Below, piece after piece: positions 32,144-62,928 of a stretch of DNA of 64,000 nucleotides. Below the pieces are notes generated by a model. It worked only from the letters and a program-made list of their open reading frames with translations. It did no database searches and was not told the DNA's origin. The position numbers were made by a program, and so were the translations under genes. Each line of letters begins with the position of its first letter. The first letter of the stretch is position 1. This DNA comes from Verrucomicrobiota bacterium (GTDB lineage Bacteria > Verrucomicrobiota > Kiritimatiellia > JAHIZV01). The stretch spans positions 2,285-66,284 of the forward strand of contig JAHIZV010000218.1 in the NCBI GenBank assembly GCA_018814445.1. Direction: 5' to 3'.

Positions 32144-33499
32144 TCAATTCTGTTCCAGTCTTTCGATTCCTTGTCTGGCTCGGACGCAGGACCCTCGATT
32201 CAACAGACTGGAGATGTCGTCTAACCTCGCCGGTTCTATGTCGCCGCGTTTCCGCAGGGCATAGAGGCGTGCAGGCAAACGCAGATCATCGGATGTAAAG
32301 GGGAAATCACCACCCCGTTCTTTGCGCCTGGCCTCCTGTATGATCTCCAGGAAGGTATAGCCGAACTCATGCGTCGGCTCGATCATCGTCCCTTCACCAT
32401 AGTCATTCCAGGTGACCAACTGGATCATTTTCCAGTCGCGCTCCATGCCTACCTGAAGCGACTCGCGCATCGTTTCGCCCTGTCGGTGAGCCAGGACCTT
32501 GCCGCCTCGGCCGTATACATCTTTGAATCCCGGATAAGCGGACACGATGGCCTCCTCGGGATTCTTCGTGAAATAGCTGAACGCTTCACCGATACGGACA
32601 AGAATCGTCTTCTTGTCGTCCGGGTCCTCCCACGGGGCATGGTGTATCCATGTGAAGCCGCCATCCGCGGCGACTTTCCTCCATAGATGGTGTAGCGCGT
32701 AGAAAGTCGGGCGATCCCGCACGGACTCAAAGGCGGCCTTCCAGACCCCGGGGTCACGAATATACATGGGACCGAAATTCATGAGGAGCGGGCCGCCCTG
32801 ATACCGCAGGTACTGAGGCTTCGAAAACCACTCTTCCTGCATCCACTGGAGTGTCTCCGTCAGATGTGTGGTGAGGTCTTGCGACTGGAGTTTGTTCCTC
32901 TTGACGAGAAGCTCGGCAGCCCGGTCTTCGTAGCAGACCGCAAACTTCATTCCGTAGCCGCTCGCGGCATCGAACAAAGCCAGCGTGGCATCGTGGATGA
33001 GAGGATAATCATCGGTCTTGCCGATTCCGTACCAATCAGCAATGACACCATTGATGCCGGCCAGCTTCATTTGAAGAAGCTGACATTCCAATGCGTCGGG
33101 ATCAGCCGAATCGTACGGGCCGATCAACGGATGATAGTGCGACCAGATATCCGGAAGCCCATCTGCGCCTATGTGCTCCGGATTATGCTCCCGCTTGTGT
33201 CCCGTCCAATGCCTGCCCCACTTTCCCCGAAACGCCTTCGTTTCGTACCAGGGCATATAGTGAACCATCAGCATTTTCCCGCCCCAGTCGAATACCGGGC
33301 CCGGCTTGTAGACCCGTCTTGCCTCAACGGGCGCGTCAGCCTTTTCAACGGGAGCTTCGACCTTCTCCGTTACGTCAGGAACAGCTTCGGGCACTTCTTC
33401 ACGTGCCGGTTCGGACAGCTCCGGGACTGTGCAGGCCGGGAGGCACAGACAGGCAAGCGCTGTGAGCAACAGACAGGGCAGCCTGGAAACGATCGCCAT
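32144..33499 (-). CDS. Lipoprotein, GH99/GH71-clan glycoside hydrolase-like (endo-alpha-mannosidase-like)
   Basis: Lipobox 'LCLPACT'. 'MVHYMPWYETKAFRGKWGRHWTGH ... HYHPLIGPYDSADPDALECQLLQMKLAGINGVIADWYG' resembles the GH99 N-terminal signature (YY.WYG ... W.HWnH ... YP.lG.YsS.D ... SWWG). Confidence 0.55.
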   Translation of the reverse strand: MAIVSRLPCLLLTALACLCLPACTVPELSEPAREEVPEAVPDVTEKVEAPVEKADAPVEARRVYKPGPVFDWGGKMLMVHYMPWYETKAFRGKWGRHWTGHKREHNPEHIGADGLPDIWSHYHPLIGPYDSADPDALECQLLQMKLAGINGVIADWYGIGKTDDYPLIHDATLALFDAASGYGMKFAVCYEDRAAELLVKRNKLQSQDLTTHLTETLQWMQEEWFSKPQYLRYQGGPLLMNFGPMYIRDPGVWKAAFESVRDRPTFYALHHLWRKVAADGGFTWIHHAPWEDPDDKKTILVRIGEAFSYFTKNPEEAIVSAYPGFKDVYGRGGKVLAHRQGETMRESLQVGMERDWKMIQLVTWNDYGEGTMIEPTHEFGYTFLEIIQEARRKERGGDFPFTSDDLRLPARLYALRKRGDIEPARLDDISSLLNRGSCVRARQGIERLEQN

Positions 33500-33555
33500 C
33501 CTTGGTATCGGCGTTAGGTGCTCCAGCGTTCAGATACCCCGAAACCGGAGTGTCA

Positions 33556-34224
33556 TTACTGCATTCTGGCAAGATGCCCGTCGACGAGGCCCTGGAGATC
33601 GGGCTTCAGCGCGACTGCTTCTGCGTAGGCATTTCTCGCCGCTGCATTCTGCTTCAGGCTGTACTGATGAGTCGTGCCTTTGTTGAGATAGGCCGTTGCC
33701 TTCATTCCGACGCTGACGTTAGGCATCTCGATCAGTTCCCCGTAGACGCGTACGGCTTCGTCAAACTGCGCTGAGAACCTGCACGCTTCACCCAGAGCCA
33801 TGTGAATCTCCGGCTGCGCCCAGTCGACACCTTCCAGAGCGGCGGCTTTCTTCAATGTTGTTGCCGCTGAAGCGTAGTCTTCACCTACCTTCATTTGACA
33901 CTCGGCCAATGCCTGGAGGGCTGACACATGCCCGATCGGCTGCACATCCGTGATCGCCAGTGCTTTCTCGGCCTGCTCTTTAGCAGCGGCGTAGTTCTTC
34001 TCTTTGAAGGCAAGAACGTAGGCCTTCTTGCTGTACGCGAGCGCGGTTTCCGTATCGGTCGCGGCCTGTCCGACCGCCGCCGTATACTCGGCCAAAGCGC
34101 CTGCGTAGTTCTGCTGACCCATCATCTCGTCGCCGGCCTTCAGTGAAGCCTGATATGTGTCTGCCGCAAGTGCTGAGCCAACGCTTATAGAAATTACCAG
34201 TGTTATCGCAAGTATGCTTCTCAT
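33556..34224 (-). CDS. Secreted tetratricopeptide-repeat protein
   Basis: Signal peptide 'MRSILAITLVISISVGSALA'. Repeated 'A...AL..Y..A...' TPR heptads throughout. Confidence 0.7.
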   Translation of the reverse strand: MRSILAITLVISISVGSALAADTYQASLKAGDEMMGQQNYAGALAEYTAAVGQAATDTETALAYSKKAYVLAFKEKNYAAAKEQAEKALAITDVQPIGHVSALQALAECQMKVGEDYASAATTLKKAAALEGVDWAQPEIHMALGEACRFSAQFDEAVRVYGELIEMPNVSVGMKATAYLNKGTTHQYSLKQNAAARNAYAEAVALKPDLQGLVDGHLARMQ

Positions 34225-34296
34225 TGGATACTCCTTCCTTTTGTATCTGATACAAAATCTGCATCTTGATCGCGCGATTGTGCATTCTATTCGAGA

Positions 34297-34306
34297 TTTA
34301 CGTAAA
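34297..34306. promoter_or_regulatory. Palindromic box TTTACGTAAA(G), site 1, about 70 bp upstream of the TPR/GH99-like operon. A half-site TTTACG follows about 11 nt downstream.
   Basis: Perfect 10-bp palindrome, identical to the sites at ~35418, ~42328 and ~55787. Confidence 0.45.
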
Positions 34307-34317: not shown

Positions 34318-35373
34318 TTACGCGCTCTGCGGGAGCGTGCTCTTCCCTTCCCGCCAGGTCCCTTCAATCTCCATTCTCACAGGCTGGGCAGGAATCCCCT
34401 TCTGGCCGCGCTGAATCGAGGCGACGAGCATATCGACCGCTGCCGCGCCGACGAGATGCGAGTTCTGGTCAATGCCGCTGACGTCCGGAAACAGCTTGCT
34501 GTCTCCATCAATATCCAGTGAAGCGTAGCCGACCTCTCCGGGGATATCGGAACCTCTGTTCTGAAGCAATTCCAAGCCGAAATGTGCAACGCCAATGACA
34601 ACGTCCGGTGCGTAGCGGTCAAACCAAGTGTTAAACTTGATCTGGTCTGCATTGCTCATCAGCAGAGGCGGGGGCATCTTCTTACCGCGCCTGTGACGAT
34701 ACTGAAGAAAGGCGGCCGTCCATTTTCCATTCACGCGCAGGTCAAGCGCATCTTCCATTACAAGACCGATCGCCCGGTAGTTGAGTCCGGAAAGCTCATC
34801 GAGCAGCTTGAGCATGGAAGTATACTGGTCATGGATCGAACGATCCAAATCCGGCGACTCGACAGTTTCGCTGATCTCAACAACAGAGAAAGGACTGAAA
34901 TCGAGGTGGATTGAACGGGGTTCTTTCTTAGAGAGTTTCCCCTGCAGAGGGGCGACGATCACGCCTTCGATGCCCCGATTCCAGATGATGTTGCCCAGGC
35001 GCGACGGGCTCATGCCGGGTTCGTTCAGCCAGAATACTTCGATGCGGTAGCCGTATTCCTTCGCGCGCTGCATGGCGCCTTCCACATACTTCCGCTCCGT
35101 GGCGAACCTCTTCCAGTCTTCTGCCGTTTTGCCCGAGGTAAGAAGGGCAAGACAGGCTCTTGTATCGTCCGGCAACTTGCTCCGAATGTGTGACATAAGT
35201 TTTGCAACTTCCGGATCGGGTTCGTATCCCAGTTGCTCGGCCGCCCTCATCACTTTTCGCCGCGTCTCTTTGGAAACCCCGGGCTTGCCCCGGAGCGCCA
35301 GTGACACAGCCATGCGCGTAACGCCCGTTTTCGCAGCTATCTCGCGCAGCGTGATTTTGTTTCCAGAACCCAT
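34318..35373 (-). CDS. LacI-family transcriptional regulator
   Basis: N-terminal HTH 'ITLREIAAKTGVTRMAVSLALRGKPGVSKETRRKVMRAAEQLGYEPD'. C-terminal periplasmic-binding-fold sugar-binding domain. Confidence 0.9.
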   Translation of the reverse strand: MGSGNKITLREIAAKTGVTRMAVSLALRGKPGVSKETRRKVMRAAEQLGYEPDPEVAKLMSHIRSKLPDDTRACLALLTSGKTAEDWKRFATERKYVEGAMQRAKEYGYRIEVFWLNEPGMSPSRLGNIIWNRGIEGVIVAPLQGKLSKKEPRSIHLDFSPFSVVEISETVESPDLDRSIHDQYTSMLKLLDELSGLNYRAIGLVMEDALDLRVNGKWTAAFLQYRHRRGKKMPPPLLMSNADQIKFNTWFDRYAPDVVIGVAHFGLELLQNRGSDIPGEVGYASLDIDGDSKLFPDVSGIDQNSHLVGAAAVDMLVASIQRGQKGIPAQPVRMEIEGTWREGKSTLPQSA

Positions 35374-35417: not shown

Positions 35418-35427
35418 TTTACGTAAA
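35418..35427. promoter_or_regulatory. Palindromic box TTTACGTAAA(G), site 2, in the divergent promoter between the LacI-family gene and the PL1-like gene
   Basis: 'GCGTTTACGTAAAGCTC'. About 45 bp upstream of the regulator start and about 95 bp upstream of the 35522 gene. Confidence 0.5.
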
Positions 35428-35521: not shown

Positions 35522-38155
35522 ATGCGCATATCGTTCAATAAAGAGATACTGCAGCGCATTACTCTGATTACATGTGTTTCTGTCGCCGCGACTGTCTCCA
35601 CTGCAAGTCAGACACTCCTCGTAGACTTCGGTAACAACTTATCGTTTCGAGGAACGAATGTGGTGAGTCCAGACTCAAACGGACATTACTGGAACAGCGT
35701 CCATTCCGCTGTGTACCACGCGGACATGGTCGATATCTCGAATAACACGACCACGGTGGATCTGGGATTCGATGCCGCGCCGGGAACGGACTTCTTCAAC
35801 GGTCCCTCCGGCACGAACGAGAATCCGGCGCTCTCCGAGTATGATGCGACTGCGCTCGGCGACCTTGGTGTGGATGAGGCGGTTTACGACTACTACGTCT
35901 CGTCGCGTTTTCAGGTCCAGGGCCTCGACACGGGGCGGACCTACAGCCTTACGTTCTTCGGTTCACACAAGTTCAGCGCGGATGATGCGACCGTCTACTC
36001 GGTCTACAGCAACACGAACTACACACAGGTCGTCGCTTCCGTCAGCCTGAACGTTCAGACGCCGGGATCGGCGTGGCTGCACAACAGCAACACGGTCGCC
36101 GTCATCAGCAACCTGGTGCCGCAGACCGGCAACATCCTGTATGTCGGCTTTGAAGGAAGCACCGGCGACAGCGGATACCTCAATGCGATGAAGATTGAAA
36201 GCGCTCCGCAGTCCGGCCCGCCCAGTCTCGAAGCTTATGTGAATCCCATGAACGGCAACGTTCCGGTTCCGAGGGAAACAAGGGTGGACGCCGACGAGAC
36301 GCGGAAGCTCGCGTTTCCCAGCGCGCGGGGATTCGGAAGGTTTGCCGACCCGGATATCGGGCCCGGACAGGACTTTGACGCGATCAAGGTGACTAACCTG
36401 CTTGATAGCGGGCCCGGTTCGTACCGCGACGCCATCATGTCCACGAACGGCCCGCGTGTAGTGATTTTCACTGTCAGCGGCACCATTGATCTCACCGAAA
36501 CCGTCCTGATGAGGGAGCCGCAGGACAACGTCTACGTTGCGGGCCAGACCAGTCCGGGAGGCATCCAGCTCAAATGCAGCGGCAACAATGAAAAAGCGCC
36601 GCTGCGCGCCGTCCGCACGCGGGACATCATTGCCCGTTTTCTGAAACTGCGGCCCGGGCTGGATCATGCGTTGAGTTCGGACGTCGACTCGCTCGCCATG
36701 AATGATGTTGAGAACAGCATCTTCGATCATCTCAGCCTGCAGTGGTCCACCGACGAGGCGGCACACATTACGTCGAAGGGCGACGGCGTCACGCTGCAAT
36801 GGTCGCTTCAATCCGAGCCGCTGCGCTGCGGCCCCTGCCGGAGCGATAATCATTCCCAGCACGATTACGGGGTCTTCTCCGACGTGAACAAGAACCTCAC
36901 GCTGTACAAGAACTTCTTCATGGGCGGGCGCTGGCGCAACCCGAATGTTCAGGCCACGAACGCGCTCGAGATGATCAACAACGTCGGCTACAACTACGGC
37001 GAGTACGCGGCGCAATTCTATGTGAATGCCACGCGCGGAAACCTTATCGCCAACATCATCGGCAACTGGTACTCAAAGGGCCCGCGTACCGCGGGCGACC
37101 CGCATATGCTCTTCGCGTCCTACGAGGGTTCGTCCAGCCACGGCTTCGAATTCTATGTGGATGGAAACATCGGCATGAGGGACACCTCGGGCGTGTGCAA
37201 CATCAACTTCCTCGCGCCTCATTTGACGAGTCCCGTCATGGAACAGAACGGAACACTGCTGACCCCGGACGGTCAGACCGGCATAGTTTTTGCGGTGGCC
37301 AGGGCGGACGGGTTGTCCATTCCCGCTGAAGATATCGTGTCCGCCGATCAGGCCATGAAAGATGTCATCGTTGGCGCGGGCGCCATGCAGGACATGTTCA
37401 GTACGCCGAGACGGGATCTCGTGGACGCGCGTTCCATGGGTCAGTTCCAGAACTGCGATGATACGGGCTACACGCCTCAGCCCGATCCGCTCGATGCGAT
37501 TCCGGCGCCCGGCTATCCGGATCTGACAACGAATACCACCTGGTCGTGGACGACCAATGACGTCGACGATGACGGCATGCTCGACGCCTGGGAGACGCTT
37601 TATGCTGATCTGAGCCTTGTCCCGAACGGTGATCCTGACGGGGACGGCTGGTCTAACATGGAAGAGTTCCTCAACTATATGGCGGGCGAGCACATTCAGT
37701 GGACCGGGACGGGTGATCCCGTCCTGGTCCCGCCCGTGTACTGCGGCTACCCGGTGGGGGTGCAGCCGACCGCCGACATGGACAGCGACGGCCTGCCGGA
37801 TGGATGGGAGTGGTTCCATTTCGGTCAAACGGACCATCCGAACGGGGAGCCCCACATCGATTGGGACGGCGACGGACACTCGAACCTTCAGGAGCTGTAC
37901 GCGGGAACGAACCCGACGAACGCATCATCGATCTTCATGATCAAAGAGGTGTCCCCGTCCGGAGACACGTACGAGGTCACCTGGCTGAGCGCGTCCGGCA
38001 AAACCTATGCCATCTACCGCACCGATGATCTCGTTTCCGGCTGGACCAATGCGGCATCGACCAACCACATTTCCGCCAGCCCCTCGGGCACAAACACCTG
38101 GTTCGATACACAGGCGCCAACCCACGGGGCGAGCTACCGCGTCAGGGTGGAGTAG
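35522..38155 (+). CDS. Secreted multidomain polysaccharide lyase (PL1 pectate-lyase-like) with an N-terminal 'DFG-YWNS' domain and the shared dockerin/TSP3-like plus beta-tail C-terminal module
   Basis: Signal peptide. N-terminal 'LLVDFGNNLSFRGTNVVSPDSNGHYWNSV ... QGLDTGRTYSLTFFGSHKF ... YLNAMKIE'. PL1-like 'IKVTNLLDSGPGSYRDAI ... VVIFTVSGTIDL', 'IFDHLSLQWSTDEAAHI', 'FMGGRWRNPNVQATNALEMINNVGYNYGEY'. C-terminal 'DPDGDGWSNMEEF', 'WDGDGHSNLQELYAGTNP', tail '...YAIYRTDDLVSGWTN...ASYRVRVE'. Confidence 0.7.
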   Translation: MRISFNKEILQRITLITCVSVAATVSTASQTLLVDFGNNLSFRGTNVVSPDSNGHYWNSVHSAVYHADMVDISNNTTTVDLGFDAAPGTDFFNGPSGTNENPALSEYDATALGDLGVDEAVYDYYVSSRFQVQGLDTGRTYSLTFFGSHKFSADDATVYSVYSNTNYTQVVASVSLNVQTPGSAWLHNSNTVAVISNLVPQTGNILYVGFEGSTGDSGYLNAMKIESAPQSGPPSLEAYVNPMNGNVPVPRETRVDADETRKLAFPSARGFGRFADPDIGPGQDFDAIKVTNLLDSGPGSYRDAIMSTNGPRVVIFTVSGTIDLTETVLMREPQDNVYVAGQTSPGGIQLKCSGNNEKAPLRAVRTRDIIARFLKLRPGLDHALSSDVDSLAMNDVENSIFDHLSLQWSTDEAAHITSKGDGVTLQWSLQSEPLRCGPCRSDNHSQHDYGVFSDVNKNLTLYKNFFMGGRWRNPNVQATNALEMINNVGYNYGEYAAQFYVNATRGNLIANIIGNWYSKGPRTAGDPHMLFASYEGSSSHGFEFYVDGNIGMRDTSGVCNINFLAPHLTSPVMEQNGTLLTPDGQTGIVFAVARADGLSIPAEDIVSADQAMKDVIVGAGAMQDMFSTPRRDLVDARSMGQFQNCDDTGYTPQPDPLDAIPAPGYPDLTTNTTWSWTTNDVDDDGMLDAWETLYADLSLVPNGDPDGDGWSNMEEFLNYMAGEHIQWTGTGDPVLVPPVYCGYPVGVQPTADMDSDGLPDGWEWFHFGQTDHPNGEPHIDWDGDGHSNLQELYAGTNPTNASSIFMIKEVSPSGDTYEVTWLSASGKTYAIYRTDDLVSGWTNAASTNHISASPSGTNTWFDTQAPTHGASYRVRVE

Positions 38156-38248: not shown

Positions 38249-41200
38249 CTACTGAGCCTGAACGCCAAGGCGGATATAGATCTTCCGCTCGGTCAGCGGA
38301 ACCAGATTGCTGACCGCATCGAAGTTGGGATCGGCTGCGCTCGTGGCTGAGAGTTCTGTGTAGCCGGCGTTGGTCCAGCTTCCTGCCAGCAGGTTCGTGC
38401 GCGACTGAAGGAAGTATGTGATGCCGCTGTCGATGCGGCGCGCGTATGTGTAGTGCACGACACTGGATCCGCCGGAGTCGGCGATCTCGATAGCGGGCAG
38501 GTAGCCGGTATCGAGTCCATTGGTCGGAACGCCTCCGAATCCAAATTCTCCAAGATTGAGAAGACCGTCACCGTCGTCGTCCGCATATCGCCCGCCGAGG
38601 CCGGGATAATCCAGCGCCCATTTCTCATAGGCAAAGGGAATGTCTCGGGCTTCGATCAGCATGGCATTCAGATAGCCTTCATTGCCGGCGGATCCTTTGA
38701 ATCCGACGTAGATCTTGTTGTCGTCATGCACGAGCAGGTTCGTGATAACGGCCACCGTGTTGCTGTTGTGCAGTTCAGATGAACCGGGCGTCTGAACGTT
38801 GAGCGTCGCGGAAGTGATCACGGTCGAGTAATTCGTGCCGGAGTAGATCGTGTAAACCGTCGCGTCGTCGGTGCTGAACTTGTGTGAGCCGAATAGGGTC
38901 AGATCATAGGTCCGGCCCGGATCCAGTCCCTGGATTTGAAACTTCGATGACACGTAGTAGTCGTTCACAGCGGCGTAAGAGCCGCCGATCAGTCCGAGCG
39001 CATTGGTATCGACGGCGTTCGTCGGCCCATTGAAACTGTCGCTGCCCGGCGCGTCGTCAAATCCAAGATTTATGCCGGTCGCAGTATTTGTTCTGTCGAT
39101 CAGGTTGGCATTGAACGCGCCGGACCAGACGCTGTTCCAGTAACTGCCTTTGCCATCGGGGTTGGAAACGGAAGTCCCGCGAAACGAGCTGTCCGCTCCA
39201 AAGTCGATCAGAATAGGACCGTGCTTTGGGGTTGTGGTTCTGACGGCGGCGCGTCCGTGCCAGAGGTGGCTGTTGGTGCCGCTTGAGCCCAGTGACACGG
39301 TCAGCACATTACTCTGCACGTTGGTCCAGGCCGCTGGCTGCCCTTCCAGCTGCACCGCGACAGGTCCGTCAAAGCCTGCCGGGAGTACCATCGTTGCGTT
39401 CGTGTCACCGACGGAATAGATCCAGAATTCGACACCCGCGCTGTTCGTCTGAACGACATAGGCGAGGCTATCAGACTTGCCGGGCGGAATGATGCAGGCG
39501 GCCAGCATGTCCGGCGACTCGGCGATGTAGCCGTACGGGGCGAGCGTCCAACCGTTCGTGCTCATCGGATTCGGACCCAGGTTGGCGGTTACTTCAACCG
39601 TACCGTATTTCGCCGCGATGAAGCCGTTGTCGGTATCGACCGCATTCGTTCCCCAATGATGCTCGAAGGAATAGACGGGTTCTCCGATGTAGCGCGCACA
39701 GACTGTTTTCTGCAGCCGGTCGATCCAGTACAACCATTGGCGGATCGGCGTACTCTCAACTTCTTCATCCCTGACGACATACGTCATGCCGTAACCGAGT
39801 CCCAAGGTCCATGCTGCGACTTCATGGTTGTGGACCGCGCCGCTGAGGTTGTTGTAGACCATCGACAGCTTGTCGTGGGCTATATGCTGTGCCAGGGGGA
39901 ATATAGTCCACGCCTTTGTCGAGTAGCGTTCACGCAGATACCTGCGCCAGAAGGGAGCGTTGGTGGTGGGCGCAAGTCCCCAGGCCAGTCCGCAGAACTG
40001 GGCTTCGTGGTTCACCAGCCGGTCGAAACCGTTTTCGGTCGATACCGGCATATACTCGCTGTCTTCGGCCGCGATGGCTGCGAGACCGGAGATGTAGGCA
40101 TGTGGCGCCGGGGAGTTGGTGTTCATGTCGTACTGTCCGGTACGCGCACCGATCTGATCATGGAAGATTATGTCCACGGGGTAATTCGTGATGAACAGTC
40201 CGCGCGTGTGTCGATTTGCAACCTGCACATCAGGATGCCACGGTGTGACGGTGTACCCGCCCTCTCCGAAGTACTCTTCAAATGAGAGTGATCCGTCCGG
40301 ATCGCGCAGAAGAGGATCTTCGCCCTTCGCAGTAAATGTTGGTCCGCGAGGATCCTCTCCCCAGAAAGTAGGATTGGTATACGGCATGACCATCTGGTCA
40401 TTGTCTTTCGCCTGTGCGAGCAGATTCGTGAACTCGGCCGATGTCCCGAACGTCGCGTTTGGAGGCAAGTGATCCGGGTATTGCTTGTCGAATCCTCCGT
40501 AGAGGTACTGTGCCAGATGAATGATTGAGGGTGAGGGCAGCTGGGAAAGCCGCTCAGTGAGACCGGTGGCTGTACCCAGACTGTTGATCAGCACCGAGTG
40601 TTTGAATGTGTTCAGTGTCGATGCCGACATCTTGTTCGTCAGCGTGCGGACAAAACCGTTCGCGCTGCTGTATGCAGCTAGTGAGTTCTCAACGGTCTCA
40701 CCAAGCACAAGCCTCACGACAGGCGACTGCCACGTTGTGTTTGTCTCCACATACGGGGTGAAAGCACGCTGGAAATATCCTCCTGTTGCATCGGCTCCCC
40801 ATTCAAGTCTTCCCGGAATGAACAGCGTCGCGGGATTCGTTGAGCCTGACCACGGATCGGCAGGAACGGGCTGAACGCCGTACAGCGAAGAGTTGCCGTT
40901 AGTCGTTTCGAGCTGGAAAAAGTCGGCGAATGCCGGCGGATAAAGTATGTTGTTCGTGTAATAGAGATTCGGCTGCAGAGCCTGATAGAAAGCATAACCG
41001 GCGACTTCGAACCAGTGACCGCCCGACTGAATATAGTTCCCAACCTCCGCAACCGTGGCAGACACGCCGCCTCCGAGGGACGCGGGCACGAGCTCGCCAT
41101 ATGGATTAAGGATCGCCAGGACATTCGTATTGGCCAACGCGTTGGTCATTTCGTCGACGTTGGTCAGTTCGAGAATATCTATTCCATTCGCGACAAGACT

Positions 41201-42280: not shown

Positions 42281-42327
42281 CGTCACATCATTCACTATCG
42301 TCTCCCGGGCGTTAAACATGGGGATGC

Positions 42328-42337
42328 TTTACGTAAA
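42328..42337. promoter_or_regulatory. Palindromic box TTTACGTAAA, site 3, in the divergent promoter between the two giant genes
   Basis: 'TGCTTTACGTAAACTTA' between the minus-strand gene ending at ~42280/42319 and the plus-strand SGNH gene. Confidence 0.5.
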
Positions 42338-42397
42338 CTTATGCAGTTTGCCGAACTGTTGAAGAGCCGGGACCATGCGAGTTATATTTGTCTCTAT

Positions 42398-47527: not shown

Positions 47528-47579
47528 GATCTGCTGGCATGAAATCATTGCCATGTCGCTTCATCTATATCTGCGCAAC

Positions 47580-47589: not shown

Positions 47590-47645
47590 GCCGCGGCGCC
47601 TTATGCGGGACGCCGCTCGTCTGGTTGAATCATCAGGAATCAGCT

Positions 47646-50528: not shown

Positions 50529-50532
50529 GTGG

Positions 50533-51000: not shown

Positions 51001-51004
51001 GGGT

Positions 51005-53981: not shown

Positions 53982-54071
53982 ACGTGTCTCTCCTTAACTG
54001 TTGCAGATACTAGTTTCCAAAAAGGTCGCGTGCAACGTGATAGTGGCCGGTGTAGAAGCATGGGTTCGTTA

Positions 54072-54287
54072 TCAATCAAAATGCCGCATAACCGGTTTCG
54101 GCGAACGGTCCTCATAGCACAATCCCCAGTGCTTCCTGAGTATCGCCAGATCCTCTTTGATCTGTTCGCAAGAAGGGTAGATGTTCTCTCGAGGATTCTG
54201 TCCCGCACGATACCCGGAACAGCAGATGGCGTTGCAGAAATAGGCTCCCGTCAATTCGGTCAATTTGTCTGCCGGAGTCTTGTTCAT
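54072..54287 (-). CDS. Possible small Cys-containing protein (71 aa) immediately downstream of the GH1 gene
   Basis: RBS GAGGTG 7 nt before the ATG. 5 Cys, including 'CNAICC'. No homology recognised. An overlapping alternative ORF exists on the same strand. Confidence 0.3.
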   Translation of the reverse strand: MNKTPADKLTELTGAYFCNAICCSGYRAGQNPRENIYPSCEQIKEDLAILRKHWGLCYEDRSPKPVMRHFD

Positions 54288-55786: not shown

Positions 55787-55796
55787 TTTACGTAAA
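55787..55796. promoter_or_regulatory. Palindromic box TTTACGTAAA(G), site 5, in the divergent promoter between GH1 and the esterase-GH65-SGNH operon
   Basis: 'TATATTTACGTAAAGTCT'. About 110 bp upstream of the GH1 start and about 80 bp upstream of the esterase start. Confidence 0.5.
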
Positions 55797-55875: not shown

Positions 55876-56745
55876 ATGACATGCACACCTCGTTACATAT
55901 CCGCCGGTGTCCTTGGCCTGCTGGCGGGCCTCATGATTCCCGCCATTTCGGAATCCATCATGACTGACGTGCAGAGCTACAGGAAGGTTGAGAACATCGC
56001 GTACCGCGAGGGACCGGAGCTGGAGGACTATGCGCGGGAACGGTGTCGTCTGGACATCTACTTCCCCGAAGGCGCCGCAGACTTTGCCACCGTCGTGTGG
56101 TTCCACGGGGGCGGTATGACGGCAGGAGAGAAGTATGTGCCGGGTGAGCTAATGAACCAGGGAATCGCGGTCGTCGCGGCTGAATACCGATTAAGTCCGC
56201 ATGTGAACGCGCCTGCGTACATCGAGGATGCTGCGGCCGCTGTCGCCTGGGTCTTCAAGAACATCGAGCAGTATGGCGGTTCAACTCAACGGGTATTTGT
56301 CGCCGGCGCTTCTGCAGGGGGTTACCTCGCGACCATGGTCGGCCTCGACAACCAATATCTCGCGGCCCACGGCATGGACGCGAACCGGATCGCCGGACTG
56401 ATTTCGCTGAGCGGCCAGGCCATCACACATTTCACGGTTCGCGCAGAGCGCGGCATCAGCGGCACACAACCGATGGTCGACGAACTGGCTCCGCTGTTTC
56501 ACGTCCGTGGTGACGCGCCTCCTTTGCTGCTGGTCACCGGCGACCGCGATCTCGAACTCTTCGGCCGCTACGAAGAGAACGCGTATTTCCAGCGCATGAT
56601 GAAAGTAGTTGGCCATGCGGATAACGAACTGCACGAGCTTAAAGGCAGGGACCACGGCGGTGTGGAGGCGCCCGCGCACAGCCTTCTTCTCGAGTTTCTG
56701 AAAAGGATCAACAAAACCATATCAACTGCCGGAGAAACGAAATGA
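55876..56745 (+). CDS. Secreted alpha/beta-hydrolase esterase (Abhydrolase_3-type; candidate carbohydrate esterase)
   Basis: Signal peptide. 'VVWFHGGGMTAGEK' HGGG oxyanion motif. 'FVAGASAGGYLA' nucleophile elbow. ATGA overlap with the downstream GH65 gene. Confidence 0.8.
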   Translation: MTCTPRYISAGVLGLLAGLMIPAISESIMTDVQSYRKVENIAYREGPELEDYARERCRLDIYFPEGAADFATVVWFHGGGMTAGEKYVPGELMNQGIAVVAAEYRLSPHVNAPAYIEDAAAAVAWVFKNIEQYGGSTQRVFVAGASAGGYLATMVGLDNQYLAAHGMDANRIAGLISLSGQAITHFTVRAERGISGTQPMVDELAPLFHVRGDAPPLLLVTGDRDLELFGRYEENAYFQRMMKVVGHADNELHELKGRDHGGVEAPAHSLLLEFLKRINKTISTAGETK

Positions 56746-59063
56746 CTTCCAATAACCCGTGGTATGCAGAAGGTGATCCGTGGGTGCTGACCCAGACTGA
56801 GTGGACCCCGGACAAGAACATTTACTTTGAAACTGTTTTTACGCAATCCAATGGCTACATGGGCATTCGGGGCTACACGGAGGAAGTGAACGAGGGGCCG
56901 GACTCCTACCGCGAGGGATATCTCGCGGGTGTTTTCGGGCACACAGACGAAGCGGCGCTGGAGCAGACCCGGGTTACGTATGACTGGCCTATGCTGGCCA
57001 TGATTACACTGCCCGAGCTTTTCGCCTGTGAAATCGAATTGGACGGGGAGGCCTTCAAGCTTTCTGAAGGAACCGTTTCCTCATTCACCCGCTCTCTCAA
57101 CATGCGCAACGGCGTTCTCAGCCGGCACGTCGCGTGGGTCAGCCCAAAAGGCCACTGGACACACCTCGTCTTCGAGCGGTTCCTCTCGTCTGCCGTCCCG
57201 CATCTCGGCATGCAGCAGATTACCGTGACTCCCGAAAACTGGTCCGGTCCGGTCACTCTGACTTTTGGACTTGATGGCGCCATTCCGACCTACTTCCGTT
57301 GCGGCGACCGCGCGATGGCTCACGTGCCTCAGGATCTTCTACAGGATCCGCGAATCGCCGTGAGCGATGAAGGTTCAGCGACATTGACATTCAAGACAAG
57401 GGGAACCGAACACACCGTCAGCATAGCGTCCAGTGTTGCGGGCGGACCGTGCAAAACGGTCGAGTCGAGCCCGGCCGTCCTGCAGCAGAAAGCCCGCCTT
57501 TCTATCAAGGAGGGCGAATCAGCAACAGTGCTCCATTCAGTGGCCGTCGTCAGTTCGAGGGATGATGTGGATCCGTCGGATGTCCCGGAACTGGCCGCGG
57601 ACATAGCCGGTGATGCGGCGAAAGCGGGGTATGGAGAATCGTTGGCCGAGTCGGAAGCCGTCTGGGAACATCGCTGGGCGATGTCTGATGTCGTGGTCGA
57701 CGGTCCGGCAAAAGACCAGGCCTATGCCCGGTTCAGCTCTTTCAGCATGCTGCAAATGGCTCCGTTCCATACGGACAACATGAGCGTGCCTGCGCGCGCC
57801 TACGCTTTCAACCGGTATCACGGCCTCTATTACTGGGACAGCGAAACGTTCCTGATGCCTCTGTATCTCCATACGCATCCCGAGGTGGCGGAGAATCTGC
57901 TGAGCTTCCGCTACCGCACGCTCGAGGGAGCGCGGAAAACCGCGCGCCAGTTGAAAGCCCCGGGTATCTGCTTTCCGTGGATGACCGATTCTGAAGACGG
58001 CACTGAACAGGGTCCATGGAATATCGGCGACTACCTCTGGCATCAGAACGCGGACATCGCTTACGCCATCGATCAGTACGTGAAGGCCACGGGAAACACG
58101 GTGTTCATGCGCGACAAAGGCCTGGAGATGATCGTCGAGAGTGCGCGCTTCTGGATGTCCCGGCTTGAGAAAGACGAAGATGGCGTTATGCACCTGCACG
58201 ACACCGTAGGACCGGACGAACTGGACAACCACGGCAAAGACAATGGCTTCACCAGTCTGATGGCCCGCCGACATCTTCGCCTTGCCGCGCACTGGGCAAG
58301 TGAAATCCGCTCCTCCTACCCCGCCGAGGCGCAGAGACTGAGCGAAAGACTGGAGATCAGCGCGGCAGAAATCACGGGTTGGAGCCATGCCGCGGACGCG
58401 ATAGCCGCGCCCATGATTCCGGATCTGAACATCCCGCTGCAGGACGAGTTTCTGTTGGCGAAGAAGCCGCTCAGTTTCGAGGGTTTGACCGCGGACGAGG
58501 CTTTCGCGATGAGGCACACACACCGCGTCGTCAAGCAGTCAGACATCGTACTCGTCATGTACCTCCTGCAGGATGAGTTCACGGTGGAGCAGATGAGAAC
58601 TGCTTACGACTTTTACGAGCCGATGACACTTCACTACTCCTCGCTTAGCTACAACACTCATTCCATACTGGCGACCAAGATCGGCCGGGATCAACAGGCT
58701 TATGACTACTTCCTGAAGGCGGCCGGCCTGGACCTGGACAACCTGCGCGACGCAACGAGCGACGGCCTTCATGCGGCCGCTCTGGGAGGAACCTGGCAGA
58801 CGATCATGTACGGCTTTCTCGGCATGCGCTACGGGAAGGATGCCATCGTGTTTGAGCCGCGTCTTCCTGAAACCTGGAAATCCGTGTCTCTGCGGATCGT
58901 ATTCCGCGGATACGTATTGAGCCTGAACCTGACGCACGACGTTCAGCGAATTGATGTGGAGGGCTCCGAAGGACGGGGCCGACCGCGAGTGATCCTTAAC
59001 GGCGAACCCCATGTTCTAAGCGATGGTCTGAGCATCACTTCGTCAGCGAAAGTGTTGAGTTGA
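56742..59063 (+). CDS. GH65-family glycoside hydrolase/phosphorylase (kojibiose/maltose/trehalose-phosphorylase-like)
   Basis: N-terminal 'WVLTQTEW ... ETVFTQSNGYMGIRGYTEEV ... GYLAGVFG' (GH65 N-domain). A central (alpha/alpha)6-type region follows. 773 aa, no signal peptide. Confidence 0.7.
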   Translation: MTSNNPWYAEGDPWVLTQTEWTPDKNIYFETVFTQSNGYMGIRGYTEEVNEGPDSYREGYLAGVFGHTDEAALEQTRVTYDWPMLAMITLPELFACEIELDGEAFKLSEGTVSSFTRSLNMRNGVLSRHVAWVSPKGHWTHLVFERFLSSAVPHLGMQQITVTPENWSGPVTLTFGLDGAIPTYFRCGDRAMAHVPQDLLQDPRIAVSDEGSATLTFKTRGTEHTVSIASSVAGGPCKTVESSPAVLQQKARLSIKEGESATVLHSVAVVSSRDDVDPSDVPELAADIAGDAAKAGYGESLAESEAVWEHRWAMSDVVVDGPAKDQAYARFSSFSMLQMAPFHTDNMSVPARAYAFNRYHGLYYWDSETFLMPLYLHTHPEVAENLLSFRYRTLEGARKTARQLKAPGICFPWMTDSEDGTEQGPWNIGDYLWHQNADIAYAIDQYVKATGNTVFMRDKGLEMIVESARFWMSRLEKDEDGVMHLHDTVGPDELDNHGKDNGFTSLMARRHLRLAAHWASEIRSSYPAEAQRLSERLEISAAEITGWSHAADAIAAPMIPDLNIPLQDEFLLAKKPLSFEGLTADEAFAMRHTHRVVKQSDIVLVMYLLQDEFTVEQMRTAYDFYEPMTLHYSSLSYNTHSILATKIGRDQQAYDYFLKAAGLDLDNLRDATSDGLHAAALGGTWQTIMYGFLGMRYGKDAIVFEPRLPETWKSVSLRIVFRGYVLSLNLTHDVQRIDVEGSEGRGRPRVILNGEPHVLSDGLSITSSAKVLS

Positions 59064-59151: not shown

Positions 59152-62100
59152 ATGAAAGAAACCAAAACGCACGCACTTCTGCACCTCTTCTTTGTGGCCG
59201 TATTTTCTCTCACGGCTGTTTCGCACGCGGCCCCCACCAATCTCATGGTCTATGGCTCGTCGGTGGCCCGGGGCTACTCGGCCAGGGATGACTTCGGGGC
59301 ATATACCACCAACAACGGCTCCCTCGGGCTGGCTTATGCCGGCCGGCTGACCACATTGCTGGGCCGGGACGGGTGGTACGTTACCAATTCTTCTACACCG
59401 GGCGACAACACGGCCCTGGCTATCGCCGACTTCAACAGCAAAGTGGTTTCGCAGTCGCCGGATTTCGTGCTGATCGGGTTGTCTTTGGGCAATGAAGGCC
59501 TGCACTCCACGCCAAGACCGGATTCGGCCGTCAACATCTTCAGCAACGGCATGCAGGAGCTGATCGGGTTATGCAGGACGAATGATTTCTATCCAATCGT
59601 CACGCTCGTATATCCCAACAACAACTTCTACGAGCGGCACTACGACCGGGTCAAGGCGATGAATCTTGTGATGAATACGTGGGACGTCCCCAGTTTCAAT
59701 TTACTGGGCGCTCTTGATGACGGCACGGGAAAGTGGGTCGACGGATACTGGAAAGATCCATTACATCCCAATGCTGACGGACACCTTGAGTTCTTCTGCA
59801 CGTTTGTTCCCAGCCTCTTCGACGCAATCAATGCAGGAAAGACCAACAGCCCCGACATCAGCAGCGCGGTCAACTTCGCGCGCGCAACGCGGGATTTGAC
59901 CGAACCCGCTCAGATCGAGTTCGTTCCCTCCAACACCATGCACTCCTTCACGACCCGGTTCCGAGTTCGTACGACGGATACGGGCAGCGTCGCTGCCGTG
60001 CGGCTCGCACCTCCAAAGATACTTGTCGATTTCGGGCCGAACAACGATGACGACGGGCGGCGTGCTTCGGATCCTGATGAAAACGGAAACTACTGGAACA
60101 GTTGGCGGCCGATCGACGGCTATACCAATCTGAATTACATCGTCTCGGGAACCTCAACATCCGGATTGATAACTTCGGACAATCAGTCCACAGAAGTCGG
60201 CCTCGAGATCACGGAGAACTTCACGGGCGCCAACGGAATCCAGAATGGCGGGCTTGATGACCCGGATGGTCCTCAGTTCTCTCTCCTCGGCGACTTCGCC
60301 GTGGAGACAGCCACGGAAGACTATTTCTACGACGGCAATACCGCAGCCTTCAAGATCACGGGCCTCAATACCGGCAGCCTCTACACGCTGCGGTTCTTCG
60401 GGACGCGAGCCTGGTCGTCGGAGACGCGTGAGACCCGCTATGTTGCCGCGGGCGGCAATGGGCCTTTGACCAATGATCTCGTTACGTCCGGCAACAACGT
60501 CGGCAGCGACGGCGTATATGATGGCAACGATGACACGATCGTGAGCATCACGGGACTGGCCGCGACCGCGAGCGGTGTAATCACGGTCAGACTGTCCACG
60601 GTGCAGGGATCGTACAGCTACCTCGGCATTATGGAAATCGCACAGGAAACACCCGTTGTCACCAACGGTTACGGGACCATTGAAGTCCGAGACACGGAGA
60701 TCGCGTACGCATCTCCGAGCGGGTCGGAGATTACTGCTTCGGTCGATGCGAACGACGGAAGTTGGTACGACATCGCCCTTTCCCACCGATACGCGAAGCA
60801 GGAGACGCTCCTGTATGTGGACGGAGCAGAAGCCGGAACACTCTCCGAAAGCATCGTCCCTCAAGCTTTCGTGCTGGGCGGACCGGATGCGGCGGACGGC
60901 GCACCGCCATCACCTTCGACCGCCGATTACCAGGACTGGTGCGTCTACCGCGCGGCCTGGACAGAGGCAGAAGCATTGGCCCAGCATGAGGGTCATCTGC
61001 AGCAGGCCAGCCTCGAAATCTGCGCGCCGCTGAGCGACAGCACTTTTCCGCAAGGAGGCAGGGCAACGAACGAAGCACAGAGCCTCTCCGTCGTGACCAT
61101 CAACATCGACGACCTCAGCGCGACGGCTGCCGTCACGGCGCCAGGCAATCTCCAGGCCGCGTCCTACGCCCTGGACGAAGTGGAGTTGTCGTGGACGGAC
61201 AACAGCACCACCGAAAGCGGCTACGTCGTCGAACGCAGAATCAGTGAGTCAGGCGCAATGTGGACCAACATCGCAGCACTCTCTGCCGGCTCGACCTCCT
61301 ACAAGGACAGCGATGTGTCCGCAGGCATCACTTATGATTACCGGGTGTCGACCGACGAGGGAACCGTGCAAAGTGAATACTCGAATGTGGTCACCATCGA
61401 ACCGGGTGAAGACGGACAAACCTACCAGACCTGGCGCAACCGGTTCTTTCTGGCGAATGCCGGCCGCTACCTTGTAGATTTCAACACGCTCGCAAGCCCC
61501 GACTACGGCGGCGTAATCTGGAACACTGCGACCAGCCTCACCGCAATGATCTCCTACGACCTGACGGCGACCAATGGCGATGCTTCGGCCGGGTACGTAC
61601 TGACGATTACGGATGCTTTCGACCAGTTCAGGTCCGGCAACGGAAGCCCTCTGAGCGGGTTCGACAATGACGCTCAGAGCACGATCTTCGTCACAACCAA
61701 TGACACGCCGAAGATGGGTCAGGTCACGCTTTCAGGTTTGAACGACCGCTTTATCTATGACGTCACGGTTTTCGGCAGGCGCGGCTCACTCTTCGCCGGA
61801 TACGACTACCGCGCCCGGTACAACGTCAGCGGAAGAGACGGGGACATCAGTTTTGAAGTGAATACAGCCACGAACGAAATCGCCTCCCATGTATTCGGTT
61901 TGAGGCCACGGGACGGACGCATCGCCATAGACGTGGCAGCACCGGACGCGCCGACAGGCAAAGTCTTTGCCGGCGTCAGCCTGCTGGCCTTCGAGGACAT
62001 GAGTCCGGGCAACACCTTCCTTATTGATTTCAATGACCGTGCCGGCGTTACGTATCCGGACGGGCAGTCCTGGAACGTGGTCACGGGCCCTACCGCCGCC

Positions 62101-62928
62101 GCAACCTACAATCTGGTCGACGTATCCGGCAGCGCCGCAGAAGGCTTCTCGTTGACGATGAATGATGCGTTCAGTGACTCGCGTGACAAGAACGGCGGGG
62201 CAATTGGAGGATTCACGGAAGAGGCGGAGAGCGTCCTGTTCAACCTGAACGGCTTCGGAGATACCGCTCAAATGACGTTCTCCGGACTTGACGTGAGCCT
62301 GACCTACGACTTCACGTTCCTCGCGAGCAGGAGAAATCCATTCGCGTCGTCGTATGATTACAATGCGAGGTTCGTGTTCACCGGCGGCGGAGACCCGGTC
62401 ACCAGCGTCGTTGACTCCGCCGATAACGATTACTACACGCTTATCGAAGGTATTCAGCCGGACGGCGGAGGTGACATCGTTCTCACGGTCGATTCACCGC
62501 AGGATGTCGGCGGCAAAACGGAGTTCCCGGTCCTCAACCTGATTCGCATGACCGAGGAAAGCATGAGCAATACCGTGCAGTCGGCATCTTCCGATGATCC
62601 TGACGGCGACGGCATTGCCAACTTTGTTGAGTACGCACACAACTTCGACCCGACGAATACTGGTGTGAACACGTTCTCAGTGGATCAGGTCGGTGTGGAA
62701 GGCGGTGGAACAACCTTCGTCGGCTATTATGACAGGTACAAGCCGGCCCGGGAAATCACCTACGGCGTCGAAAGCACCACCAACCTTCTCGCGCCCGACT
62801 GGCAGCCCGATGCGGGTATCAGCTTGAGCGTGGTCAGCGATGCCGGCACAGCACAGACCATCAAACTGCAAAGGGCCGTGACGGAGACGACCCTCTTCAT
62901 CCGGGTCGCTACTGAATACACGCCCTGA
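59152..62928 (+). CDS. Giant secreted SGNH/GDSL-hydrolase multidomain protein (paralog 2), with the same architecture as 42398..46222
   Basis: Signal 'MKETKTHALLHLFFVAVFSLTAVSHA'. SGNH blocks 'LMVYGSSVARGY', 'VTNSSTPGDNTA', 'IGLSLGNEGL', 'DPLHPNADGHLEF'. 'KILVDFGPNNDDDGRRASDPDENGNYWNSWRP ... ITGLNTGSLYTLRFFGTRA ... YLGIMEI'. LamG-like 'YGTIEVRDTEIAYASPSG ... LYVDGAEAGTL'. FN3 'NLQAASYALDEVELSWTDN ... YDYRVSTDEG'. Two further 'LVDFN.../FLIDFN...' domains. C-terminal 'DPDGDGIANFVEYAHNFDP ... YGVESTTNLLAPDWQP ... LFIRVATEYTP'. Confidence 0.8.
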   Translation: MKETKTHALLHLFFVAVFSLTAVSHAAPTNLMVYGSSVARGYSARDDFGAYTTNNGSLGLAYAGRLTTLLGRDGWYVTNSSTPGDNTALAIADFNSKVVSQSPDFVLIGLSLGNEGLHSTPRPDSAVNIFSNGMQELIGLCRTNDFYPIVTLVYPNNNFYERHYDRVKAMNLVMNTWDVPSFNLLGALDDGTGKWVDGYWKDPLHPNADGHLEFFCTFVPSLFDAINAGKTNSPDISSAVNFARATRDLTEPAQIEFVPSNTMHSFTTRFRVRTTDTGSVAAVRLAPPKILVDFGPNNDDDGRRASDPDENGNYWNSWRPIDGYTNLNYIVSGTSTSGLITSDNQSTEVGLEITENFTGANGIQNGGLDDPDGPQFSLLGDFAVETATEDYFYDGNTAAFKITGLNTGSLYTLRFFGTRAWSSETRETRYVAAGGNGPLTNDLVTSGNNVGSDGVYDGNDDTIVSITGLAATASGVITVRLSTVQGSYSYLGIMEIAQETPVVTNGYGTIEVRDTEIAYASPSGSEITASVDANDGSWYDIALSHRYAKQETLLYVDGAEAGTLSESIVPQAFVLGGPDAADGAPPSPSTADYQDWCVYRAAWTEAEALAQHEGHLQQASLEICAPLSDSTFPQGGRATNEAQSLSVVTINIDDLSATAAVTAPGNLQAASYALDEVELSWTDNSTTESGYVVERRISESGAMWTNIAALSAGSTSYKDSDVSAGITYDYRVSTDEGTVQSEYSNVVTIEPGEDGQTYQTWRNRFFLANAGRYLVDFNTLASPDYGGVIWNTATSLTAMISYDLTATNGDASAGYVLTITDAFDQFRSGNGSPLSGFDNDAQSTIFVTTNDTPKMGQVTLSGLNDRFIYDVTVFGRRGSLFAGYDYRARYNVSGRDGDISFEVNTATNEIASHVFGLRPRDGRIAIDVAAPDAPTGKVFAGVSLLAFEDMSPGNTFLIDFNDRAGVTYPDGQSWNVVTGPTAAATYNLVDVSGSAAEGFSLTMNDAFSDSRDKNGGAIGGFTEEAESVLFNLNGFGDTAQMTFSGLDVSLTYDFTFLASRRNPFASSYDYNARFVFTGGGDPVTSVVDSADNDYYTLIEGIQPDGGGDIVLTVDSPQDVGGKTEFPVLNLIRMTEESMSNTVQSASSDDPDGDGIANFVEYAHNFDPTNTGVNTFSVDQVGVEGGGTTFVGYYDRYKPAREITYGVESTTNLLAPDWQPDAGISLSVVSDAGTAQTIKLQRAVTETTLFIRVATEYTP

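Follow-up and report, generated by a model that had tools for sequence, protein, structure and literature searches.

Fungal walls and biofilms of the dental-plaque type contain alpha-1,3-glucan as a major polymer. One of the described systems closest to the locus reported here is the nigerose/alpha-1,3-glucan cluster of Lachnoclostridium phytofermentans, in which the GH65 nigerose phosphorylase Cphy_1874 is found with a nearby GH87 enzyme, the GH31_u1 protein Cphy_1877, a LacI-family regulator and an ABC transporter (PMC9061262). A second point of comparison is a putative polysaccharide utilisation locus (PUL) of Prevotella melaninogenica, which combines GH87 and GH97 with a GH71/99-like DYGE lipoprotein scoring closer to GH99; none of the GH87-containing utilisation loci has been characterised experimentally (PMC13421300). 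Our text search of the literature returned no paper tying Verrucomicrobia to GH87-based degradation. Here we analyse a 64-kb stretch of DNA (the window) on a 66.9-kb contig (locus tags KJ626_14360 to 14435) assembled from a metagenome and assigned to a “Verrucomicrobia bacterium”, in which a carbohydrate-active enzyme (CAZyme) island of about 31 kb (32144-62928) comprises 21 genes on both strands in at least seven transcription units. We suggest that this island is a LacI-family regulon for an alpha-1,3-linked glucan of the mutan, pseudonigeran or nigeran type, probably bearing ester groups or lying in an esterified matrix, and we give this reading slightly better than even odds (about 0.55).

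The island resembles the L. phytofermentans cluster in having GH87, GH65 and a LacI-family regulator in one locus, and in an apparent succession of an extracellular endo-alpha-1,3-glucanase and cytoplasmic phosphorolysis; GH31 and a HAD gene occur in related loci. Because the conserved core matches this GH87/GH65 nigerose phosphorylase/GH31/LacI logic, alpha-1,3-glucan is our preferred substrate. The differences are that L. phytofermentans is a Gram-positive bacterium relying on ABC uptake, and that its cluster contains no giant SGNH esterases and no BD-FAE, DUF6259-type, module X, PEP-CTERM or pseudopilin proteins. With the P. melaninogenica PUL the island shares a GH87 lipoprotein and a single-domain DYGE GH71/99-like lipoprotein, and the target inferred there is an alpha-glucan. 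However, the Prevotella locus possesses SusC/SusD and a SusR-like regulator and has no esterases, GH65 or DUF6259, while SusC/SusD are absent from the window. In kind, the system would be a variation on a type already known, the regulator-linked CAZyme cluster for alpha-glucan.

The GH87 lipoprotein (583 aa, 51719-53470, minus strand) had been taken for a CBM6/35 beta-helix lipoprotein in a preliminary description of the window, yet it is a member of the GH87 alpha-1,3-glucanase family. Its Pfam matches (CatAgl_D1, 135 bits, and D2, 79 bits, with a cut-off of 27) cover the catalytic unit formed by the D1 beta-sandwich and the D2 beta-helix, and the Protein Data Bank (PDB) matches are 7c7d (E = 1e-66), 5zru (3e-64) and 6k0m (4e-38). 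The segment ADGINFCDG...NTGDDGLATWS aligns with ADGINMTNG...GTGDDSFALFS at the same 23-residue spacing, and the Asp triad is intact, its residues being the equivalents of D1067, D1090 and D1091 of Agl-KA, essential aspartates with catalytic or substrate-binding roles (PMC6814745). Every GH87 enzyme characterised so far is a mutanase or a mycodextranase (PMC13421300), and hydrolysis of alpha-1,3-glucan or nigeran is predicted for the window enzyme from its sequence.

The second glycosidase that may attack the polymer is the GH71/GH99-like lipoprotein (451 aa, 32144-33499, minus strand, lipobox LPAC). It scores 43 bits against Pfam GH99 (cut-off 33), covering only half of the profile, and 25 bits against GH71 (cut-off 34), and its PDB match to GH99 has an E value of 5e-7. 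Its translation contains TWNDYGEGT, in which DYGE is the GH71-type catalytic motif: DYGE marks GH71 and EWHE marks GH99, and the same DYGE is found in PmGH99 of Prevotella (PMC13421300). Orthologues (55% and 37% identity) adjoin DUF6259-SGNH fusion genes in two related loci, L090 and L091.

The cytoplasmic step would be performed by the GH65 protein (56742-59063, plus strand), which has the full three-domain architecture (Pfam N, m and C domains, all above cut-off) and no signal peptide. Its matches to kojibiose and maltose phosphorylases in the PDB (1e-86) are far stronger than those to a GH65 hydrolase (1e-30), and it is a probable alpha-glucobiose phosphorylase. GH65 orthologues (46% identity) adjoin a HAD gene in Oceanipulchritudo coccoides CK1056 and in L087, and this gene is by inference beta-phosphoglucomutase-like.

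The regulator is a LacI-family protein (351 aa, 34318-35373, minus strand; Pfam LacI helix-turn-helix (HTH) and Peripla_BP_3 domains), with orthologues at 41-61% identity in L002, L003, L005, L007, L089 and L090. By inspecting intergenic regions we found a perfect palindrome with a central CG, TTTACGTAAA, which flanking positions lengthen to the operator motif RRTTTACGTAAAYY. The window contains four exact copies and one with a single mismatch, compared with 0.57 expected, and a count of five was reached in none of 100 shuffles. All five sites are located within the island and in intergenic DNA, which makes up 5.3% of the window, and two of them flank lacI. O1 (34297-34306) lies upstream of the TPR/GH99-like unit, O2 (35418-35427) in the divergent promoter region of lacI and the PL1-like gene, O3 (42328-42337) in the divergent region of the DUF6259 gene and the first SGNH gene, O4 (TTTACGTATA, the copy with one mismatch, 47580-47589) upstream of the pseudopilin gene, and O5 (55787-55796) in the divergent region of GH1 and the BD-FAE-GH65-SGNH-2 genes. 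The protein thus combines an HTH with a sugar-binding domain, palindromic operators are found in the promoters of putative targets, lacI's own included, and binding of LacI to them is predicted.

The palindrome is also found outside the window. Another 23 non-redundant exact sites, all intergenic and upstream of island-type genes, were detected in nine related loci: 21 in L002, L003, L005, L007, L009, L086, L087 and L088/L089, and two in L090. Each of these nine loci, one of which belongs to O. coccoides, encodes a LacI orthologue or ends before lacI could be seen. The genes downstream of the sites encode GH65/HAD, GH87, GH71, GH31, GH13, SGNH, DUF6259, module X proteins, a TonB-dependent receptor, a major facilitator superfamily (MFS) protein, LacI itself and a pseudopilin. 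In L090, a one-mismatch site matches the relative position of O1, and an exact site precedes the pseudopilin gene. No exact palindrome occurs in 76 other loci (1.34 Mb in total). This distribution represents phylogenetic-footprint evidence which supports a LacI regulon and, in silico, co-regulation of the island genes. In L091, which has no palindrome site, a hybrid two-component system (HTCS)-like Y_Y_Y sensor kinase (1-3241) replaces LacI and its operator. A second palindrome of the window, TTTTGTATCTGATACAAAA, with 8-bp arms, is located at 34239-34257, between the TPR start and lacI and 40 bp from O1.

The preliminary description had proposed dual candidate regulators, LacI and an AraR-like GntR/periplasmic-binding protein (PBP). 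The first is now linked to the island via the conserved operator, while for the second we found neither an associated motif nor any homologue in the flanks of the comparator loci. The gene of this second regulator (GntR HTH, 2e-11; Peripla_BP_3, 1e-10; 63013-64000, plus strand) had been placed inside the island, but it starts at about 63013, past the island end at 62928, and is truncated by the end of the window. As a candidate for binding the palindrome, the GntR/PBP protein is less likely than LacI, because from genome to genome the motif goes together with the LacI orthologue and has no GntR homologue in its vicinity.

Tracing full-length homologues of the SGNH giant and of the DUF6259 protein led to 10 independent loci, which serve as our comparators. 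Their recurrent partners are the BD-FAE esterase, the LacI orthologue, module X proteins, PEP-CTERM proteins and pseudopilin-like genes, and the recurrent glycosidases all belong to alpha-glucan families: GH87, GH71, GH71/99-like, GH49, GH31 (with DUF5010), GH65 with the HAD gene, and GH13. The fullest gene set is carried by O. coccoides CK1056, a cultured type strain (PMC10288369), in the order GH13, HAD, GH65, GH65, module X protein, SGNH, GH71, a 287-aa protein, GH87, GH87, MFS, LacI, three module X proteins, a module X PEP-CTERM protein, TonB-dependent receptor and GH31. Shorter versions occur in L087 (HAD, GH65, GH87, DUF6259, SGNH, prepilin), in L091 (GH87, GH99/71-like, DUF6259/SGNH fusion) and in L090, where LacI, TPR, GH99-like and GH49 genes are followed, after an interval, by a DUF6259/SGNH fusion, BD-FAE and prepilin. 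The LacI-TPR-GH99-like order is shared by L090 and the window (61%, 40% and 55% identity, respectively). L005 has two GH87 genes, L002 and L003 combine GH31 with DUF5010, and in a Bacteroidetes locus, L051, one SGNH homologue is found among four GH87 genes. The ExbBD-644-aa genes and the GntR regulator of the window have no counterpart in the comparator loci.

These data bear on the possibility that the island has no common target and is a CAZyme-rich neighbourhood, of the sort typical for Planctomycetes–Verrucomicrobia–Chlamydiae (PVC) genomes, brought together by chance or rearrangement, with GH1 acting on beta-glycosides, PL1 on uronides and GH87 on alpha-glucan. Its families are indeed heterogeneous, its seven or more transcription units occupy both strands, the PL1-like, GH1, ExbBD and GntR genes are not conserved with the rest, and distant SGNH homologues have no conserved context. 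Nevertheless, we consider a chance assembly very improbable, given the operator shared by five promoter regions and conserved across genomes, the modules shared by the four largest proteins, the DUF6259-SGNH gene fusions and the recurrence of the gene set in 10 loci. CAZyme-type clustering at 32144-62928 exceeds chance and the island is real: carbohydrate-active catalytic domains are encoded by 9 of its 21 genes, compared with one (GH13) of about 24 genes in the first 24.5 kb. The view of the preliminary description that this is one functional unit, non-Sus in type and built on large secreted enzymes with shared modules, is supported by operator, modules and synteny, as opposed to a chance neighbourhood. 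The enzyme genes that it listed and the lacI gene were all found in place by Pfam and PDB searches, among them those for the GH99/GH71-like lipoprotein, the 1356-aa hydrolase-like protein, the two giant SGNH proteins, GH1, BD-FAE/Abhydrolase_3 and GH65; the prepilin pseudopilin was confirmed as well.

The most constant members of the conserved set are the esterases. SGNH-1 (42398-46222, plus strand, start inferred from the signal peptide; Pfam Lipase_GDSL_2 and fn3) consists of the SGNH domain, module X (a strong copy at nt 43250-43930 and two weak ones), a LamG-like stretch, fn3 and the C-terminal module (nt 45848-46216). SGNH-2 (1258 aa, 59152-62928, plus strand, assigned by Pfam) repeats this layout, with module X at nt 59968-60666 plus two weak copies and the C-terminal module at nt 62554-62922, and the two proteins are paralogues with 41% identity. 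Their Lipase_GDSL_2 scores are 33.3 and 41.4 bits (cut-off 32.9). Both carry the GSSV, GDN, N-x-G and DPxHP blocks (DPYHP as the last block in SGNH-1), so that blocks I, II, III and V of the SGNH/GDSL type are present with their Ser, Gly, Asn and His; among 16 homologues G84, N114 and H205 are invariant and S36 and D202 are at least 90% conserved. The public annotation of SGNH-1 (1221 aa) begins after the predicted signal peptide (region 42134-42560), and a start near 42398-42416 gives a signal sequence like that of SGNH-2. The third esterase is a BD-FAE/Abhydrolase_3 protein with a signal or anchor sequence (55876-56745, plus strand, Pfam), whose orthologues (55-60% identity) adjoin SGNH giants in six comparator loci. 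As esterases of two types constantly accompany the set, ester groups are probably present on the natural substrate or in the matrix around it.

This constancy of esterases can also be read in another way, in which GH87 has a non-canonical specificity and the substrate is some other esterified alpha-linked compound, either an acylated alpha-glucoside or glycolipid or an acylated exopolysaccharide of the alternan, dextran or pullulan kind. Some comparators do contain GH49, GH13/PUD, GH31 and GH16, several disaccharides are candidates for GH65, and the homology of the window GH87 to characterised GH87 enzymes in phmmer alignments is clear, yet not close. We regard such a substrate as unlikely, because the characterised GH87s are all mutanases or mycodextranases (PMC13421300) and the triad is conserved, GH71 co-occurs with the DYGE-type GH71/99-like enzyme, and large multi-CBM (carbohydrate-binding module) secreted enzymes suggest an insoluble polymer, not a small glycolipid.

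The acetylated or uronic polysaccharide proposed in the preliminary description could be pectin or rhamnogalacturonan, a Vi-antigen-like alpha-1,4-GalNAcA polymer, or an acidic algal or bacterial exopolysaccharide, with a PL1-like lyase as the depolymerase and the SGNH and BD-FAE proteins as deacetylases. The lyase candidate is a secreted protein of 877 aa (35522-38155, plus strand) composed of module X (nt 35576-36226), a PL1-like beta-helix, a TSP3 motif and the C-terminal module (nt 37832-38146). The gene is in place. In the PDB its beta-helix matches a pectate lyase, 9buj (E = 1e-14), and VexL, the lyase for Vi antigen (2e-3), and aligns with solved lyases at the AGQTSPGG, DH-S-WS-DE and R-N-P motifs, but the 877-aa protein has no Pfam PL1 match, and the NCBIfam PelZ hit (4e-16) reaches 59 bits against a cut-off of 840. 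A uronic target would be consistent with these matches and the aligned RNP-type motif, with the module X (59% identity) and C-terminal module that this protein shares with the other giants, with the operator adjoining its gene, with three esterases in the island, and with the alpha-GalNAc-ases found among the modelled fold relatives of DUF6259. However, the PL1-like catalytic domain has no counterpart in the 10 comparator loci, the recurrent glycosidase families are all active on alpha-glucan, and Pfam searches of the window found no GH28, GH88, GH105, CE8, CE12 or uronate-catabolism gene. With one PL1-like domain as its basis, the uronic target is in our judgement decidedly improbable, and the earlier substrate assignment is probably wrong, while its acylated part is plausible. 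The polyuronide role may be limited to the PL1-like protein as an accessory enzyme; the other genes and their conservation lend it no support.

The DUF6259-family protein (1356 aa, 38249-42319, minus strand; the NCBI start is at 42280) is secreted and consists of a GH-D-like core, module X (nt 38624-39250) and the C-terminal module (nt 38255-38623). Its core is conserved in 34 homologues (35-58% identical), and an AlphaFold2 model (predicted local distance difference test score (pLDDT) 84) suggests an N-terminal beta-sandwich, a (beta/alpha)8 barrel and a C-terminal beta-sandwich, like those of the retaining alpha-glycosidases of GH129, GH101, GH36 and GH31. In Foldseek the best match is GH129 5opq (2e-20), followed by GH101, GH36 and GH31 (range 2e-20 to 1e-10). 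It differs from these families in sequence: identity to the structural relatives is about 10%, the core has no sequence-level relative in the PDB (the family profile matched only LRR tails among PDB sequences), and the family has no listing other than as a DUF. Our literature search for DUF6259 or PF19773 found nothing. From the modelled fold, the protein is best described as belonging to an uncharacterised alpha-glycosidase-like family. DUF6259 is fused to SGNH in three proteins, P0124, P0125 and an open reading frame (ORF) of L009. The latter (2721-12128, 3136 aa) joins module X copies and an entire SGNH giant to a core of the DUF6259 type, and GH65 is divergent from it, with an operator between both genes.

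BLASTP and HMM searches within the window revealed a repeated unit of about 210 aa, module X, in eight copies in the four big island proteins: one in the PL1-like protein, one in DUF6259 (59% mutual identity) and three in each SGNH giant. Within the window, module X and the C-terminal module are restricted to large secreted proteins, and neither has a Pfam or NCBIfam family. AlphaFold2 modelled module X as a beta-jelly-roll (pLDDT 90), for which Foldseek gave only weak matches to CBMs (8xmz, 3e-4; CBM61, CBM4 and CBM32; template modelling scores 0.3-0.5), and from these module X may be regarded as CBM-like. Its family comprises about 1,200 cluster representatives, and single proteins carry as many as five copies. 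The module's closest relatives are PEP-CTERM proteins of 240-270 aa from Verrucomicrobiota and Phycisphaerales that stand alone, and it is appended to SGNH, DUF6259 and PL1-like enzymes and to one GH87 in CK1056.

The C-terminal module is formed by a TSP3-like calcium motif and a beta-sandwich of about 90 aa. Its sharing had been claimed before and is borne out by hmmsearch, which detects it as the final segment of five proteins, namely the two SGNH giants, the DUF6259 and PL1-like proteins and an upstream LTD/CotH protein. A type IX secretion system (T9SS) sorting domain takes the same position in Bacteroidota homologues of the SGNH protein, and by this analogy we infer that the module may serve secretion or anchoring. 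The LTD/CotH protein itself (27229-32103, plus strand, 1624 aa) carries five lamin-tail domains, and another resembling CotH kinase, in addition to the terminal TSP3 and C-terminal module; its gene has no operator, and L023 is the only related locus with a homologue.

Surface attachment may also involve PEP-CTERM proteins. Two had been ascribed to the island; one lies there (about 214 aa, 46210-46854, minus strand; TIGR02595, 19 bits with a cut-off of 16), while the other is outside, at 12150-12830. L003, L005 and L007 encode fusions of BD-FAE esterases with the conserved N-terminal domain of the island protein (“module Y”), and this domain is also present in L091. An exosortase gene, EpsH, is found inside the L090 cluster (6089-6562), which fits PEP-CTERM anchoring of module X proteins. 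The neighbouring pseudopilin-like gene (46910-47554, minus strand; Pfam N_methyl and NCBIfam, prepilin-type N-methyl/DUF1559) belongs to a type that recurs as N_methyl genes in L003, L087 and L090.

The GH87 gene is part of a tightly packed minus-strand operon (48212-53981; 179 aa, GH87, ExbB, ExbD, ExbD, 644 aa) which was overlooked earlier. Its ExbD, ExbD and ExbB genes (50103-51718, minus strand; Pfam ExbD twice and MotA_ExbB) encode proton-motive-force transducers, and the ExbB start follows directly after the GH87 stop. The last gene (48212-50146, minus strand), specific to the window and free of any family match (TonB_C included), encodes a 644-aa membrane-anchored protein with an N-terminal anchor, a long charged coiled region and a Trp-rich C-terminal domain, and could be an atypical TonB-like partner. 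The first gene encodes a secreted protein of 179 aa (53442-53981, minus strand), homologous to a domain fused N-terminally to GH87 enzymes in L005 and in both GH87s of CK1056. It matches RicinB_lectin_2 with E = 0.19 only, and a beta-trefoil-like fold is our guess. We rejected the idea that a frameshift has split a single gene into the 179-aa ORF and GH87, because each has a separate signal sequence.

Bringing these components together, we propose the following scheme for alpha-1,3-glucan use. Module X, as a shared CBM-like jelly-roll, would tie the secreted and surface enzymes to the polymer, and the TSP3-plus-beta-sandwich C-terminal module together with PEP-CTERM anchoring would retain them at the cell surface. 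The two giant SGNH esterases and the BD-FAE esterase would remove acyl groups, and the GH87 lipoprotein, the GH71/99-like DYGE lipoprotein and the DUF6259 GH-D-like alpha-glycosidase would cleave the chain. Oligosaccharides would then be taken up through a transporter encoded outside the window; the joining of ExbB-ExbD to the GH87 operon suggests a TonB-dependent receptor elsewhere, and the O. coccoides cluster has both a receptor and an MFS gene. The cytoplasmic GH65 would phosphorolyse the alpha-glucobiose to glucose and beta-glucose-1-phosphate, and the disaccharide or a related sugar would lift LacI repression. The PL1-like lyase, GH1 and the TPR protein are probably local additions sharing the operator.

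The island is not of the Sus type. Pfam searches (Plug, TonB_dep_Rec, SusD) found neither SusC/SusD nor any TonB-dependent receptor among the window proteins, bearing out the absence reported previously, and the adjacent pair of a SusC-like transporter and a SusD-like lipoprotein which defines such loci is therefore missing. As in the Sus-type PULs of Bacteroidota, enzymes for one glycan, surface binders and a regulator or sensor appear to be co-localised and co-regulated. The differences are that SusC/SusD are missing and glycan binding apparently falls to module X, both as a domain of the enzymes and in PEP-CTERM-anchored proteins, and that the regulator is LacI and not an HTCS or an extracytoplasmic function (ECF) sigma factor, although the comparator L091 does have an HTCS-like sensor.

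A bolder proposal, which we make tentatively and against the odds, is that Opitutia-type Verrucomicrobiota possess an undescribed non-Sus system for esterified alpha-1,3-glucan, assembled from three uncharacterised families plus a pseudopilin-like protein and controlled by one LacI repressor via RRTTTACGTAAAYY. Of the three, DUF6259, whose fold is GH129/GH101/GH31-like, would represent a new glycoside hydrolase family and module X a new CBM family, the third being that of the giant SGNH carbohydrate esterases, and free PEP-CTERM-anchored module X proteins would fill the SusD/SusE role. If this is true, an unrecognised natural acylated alpha-glucan exists, and if the esterases act on the glucan itself, a new natural modification of alpha-glucan is implied. 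The island and its relatives offer a regulon model with regulator, operator, enzymes and binding modules, put forward DUF6259 hydrolases, module X and giant SGNH esterases as families for study, exemplify PVC glycan use organised without SusC/D, and have the same gene set in the cultured type strain O. coccoides CK1056.

Several observations weigh against alpha-1,3-glucan as the substrate. The literature yielded no naturally acylated alpha-1,3-glucan, which leaves the constant presence of two esterase types unexplained. The GH87 operon of the window has no operator site of its own; there is, however, no terminator-like site between it and the operator-controlled GH1 gene, so read-through from GH1 into the GH87 operon is possible. 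The beta-phosphoglucomutase-like HAD gene, GH31 and a transporter are missing from the window. As judged from its sequence, the GH65 disaccharide could be nigerose, kojibiose, maltose or trehalose, and the enzymes structurally closest to the DUF6259 core have sugars of the alpha-galactoside or alpha-GalNAc type as their substrates, not glucose. The module X of the PL1-like protein is 59% identical to the DUF6259 copy, which makes a polyuronide component conceivable. Finally, distant SGNH homologues (Luteolibacter, Akkermansiaceae) have no conserved neighbourhood: a census of neighbour families at 12 more distant SGNH loci (83 ORFs) revealed no recurrent family, and the conserved gene context is confined to the closer SGNH clade.

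The remaining island genes are less informative about the substrate. The cytoplasmic GH1 beta-glycosidase (54294-55676, minus strand; Pfam, E = 1e-138; no signal peptide) has no counterpart in the comparator loci. A secreted TPR protein of 222 aa (33556-34224, minus strand) was assigned by Pfam, while a secreted ORF of 190 aa (47643-48215, plus strand) has no Pfam or NCBIfam family and no comparator homologue. A 71-codon ORF (54070-54285, minus strand) located in the 312 bp that separate GH1 from the 179-aa gene has no Pfam or NCBIfam match and may be a gene remnant. Scans of the window for sigma-70 promoters and terminators gave results no better than shuffles, and therefore operon boundaries rest on spacing only.

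Outside the island, positions 1-24 kb are occupied by housekeeping genes (sensor kinases, lipoate/glycine-cleavage, pantothenate and arginine biosynthesis) and one GH13. This GH13 (CBM48, alpha-amylase domain and an internal TSP3-like stretch) is followed by the second PEP-CTERM protein (12150-12830); together (12150-15660, minus strand) they form another alpha-glucan-related pair, 17 kb outside the island and without a TTTACGTAAA site. Two paralogous right-handed beta-helix proteins (30% identity; 24742-27092, plus strand) are encoded after a perfect 20-bp palindrome, AGGTGTGCGATCGCACACCT (24532-24551), which may be a separate regulatory site.

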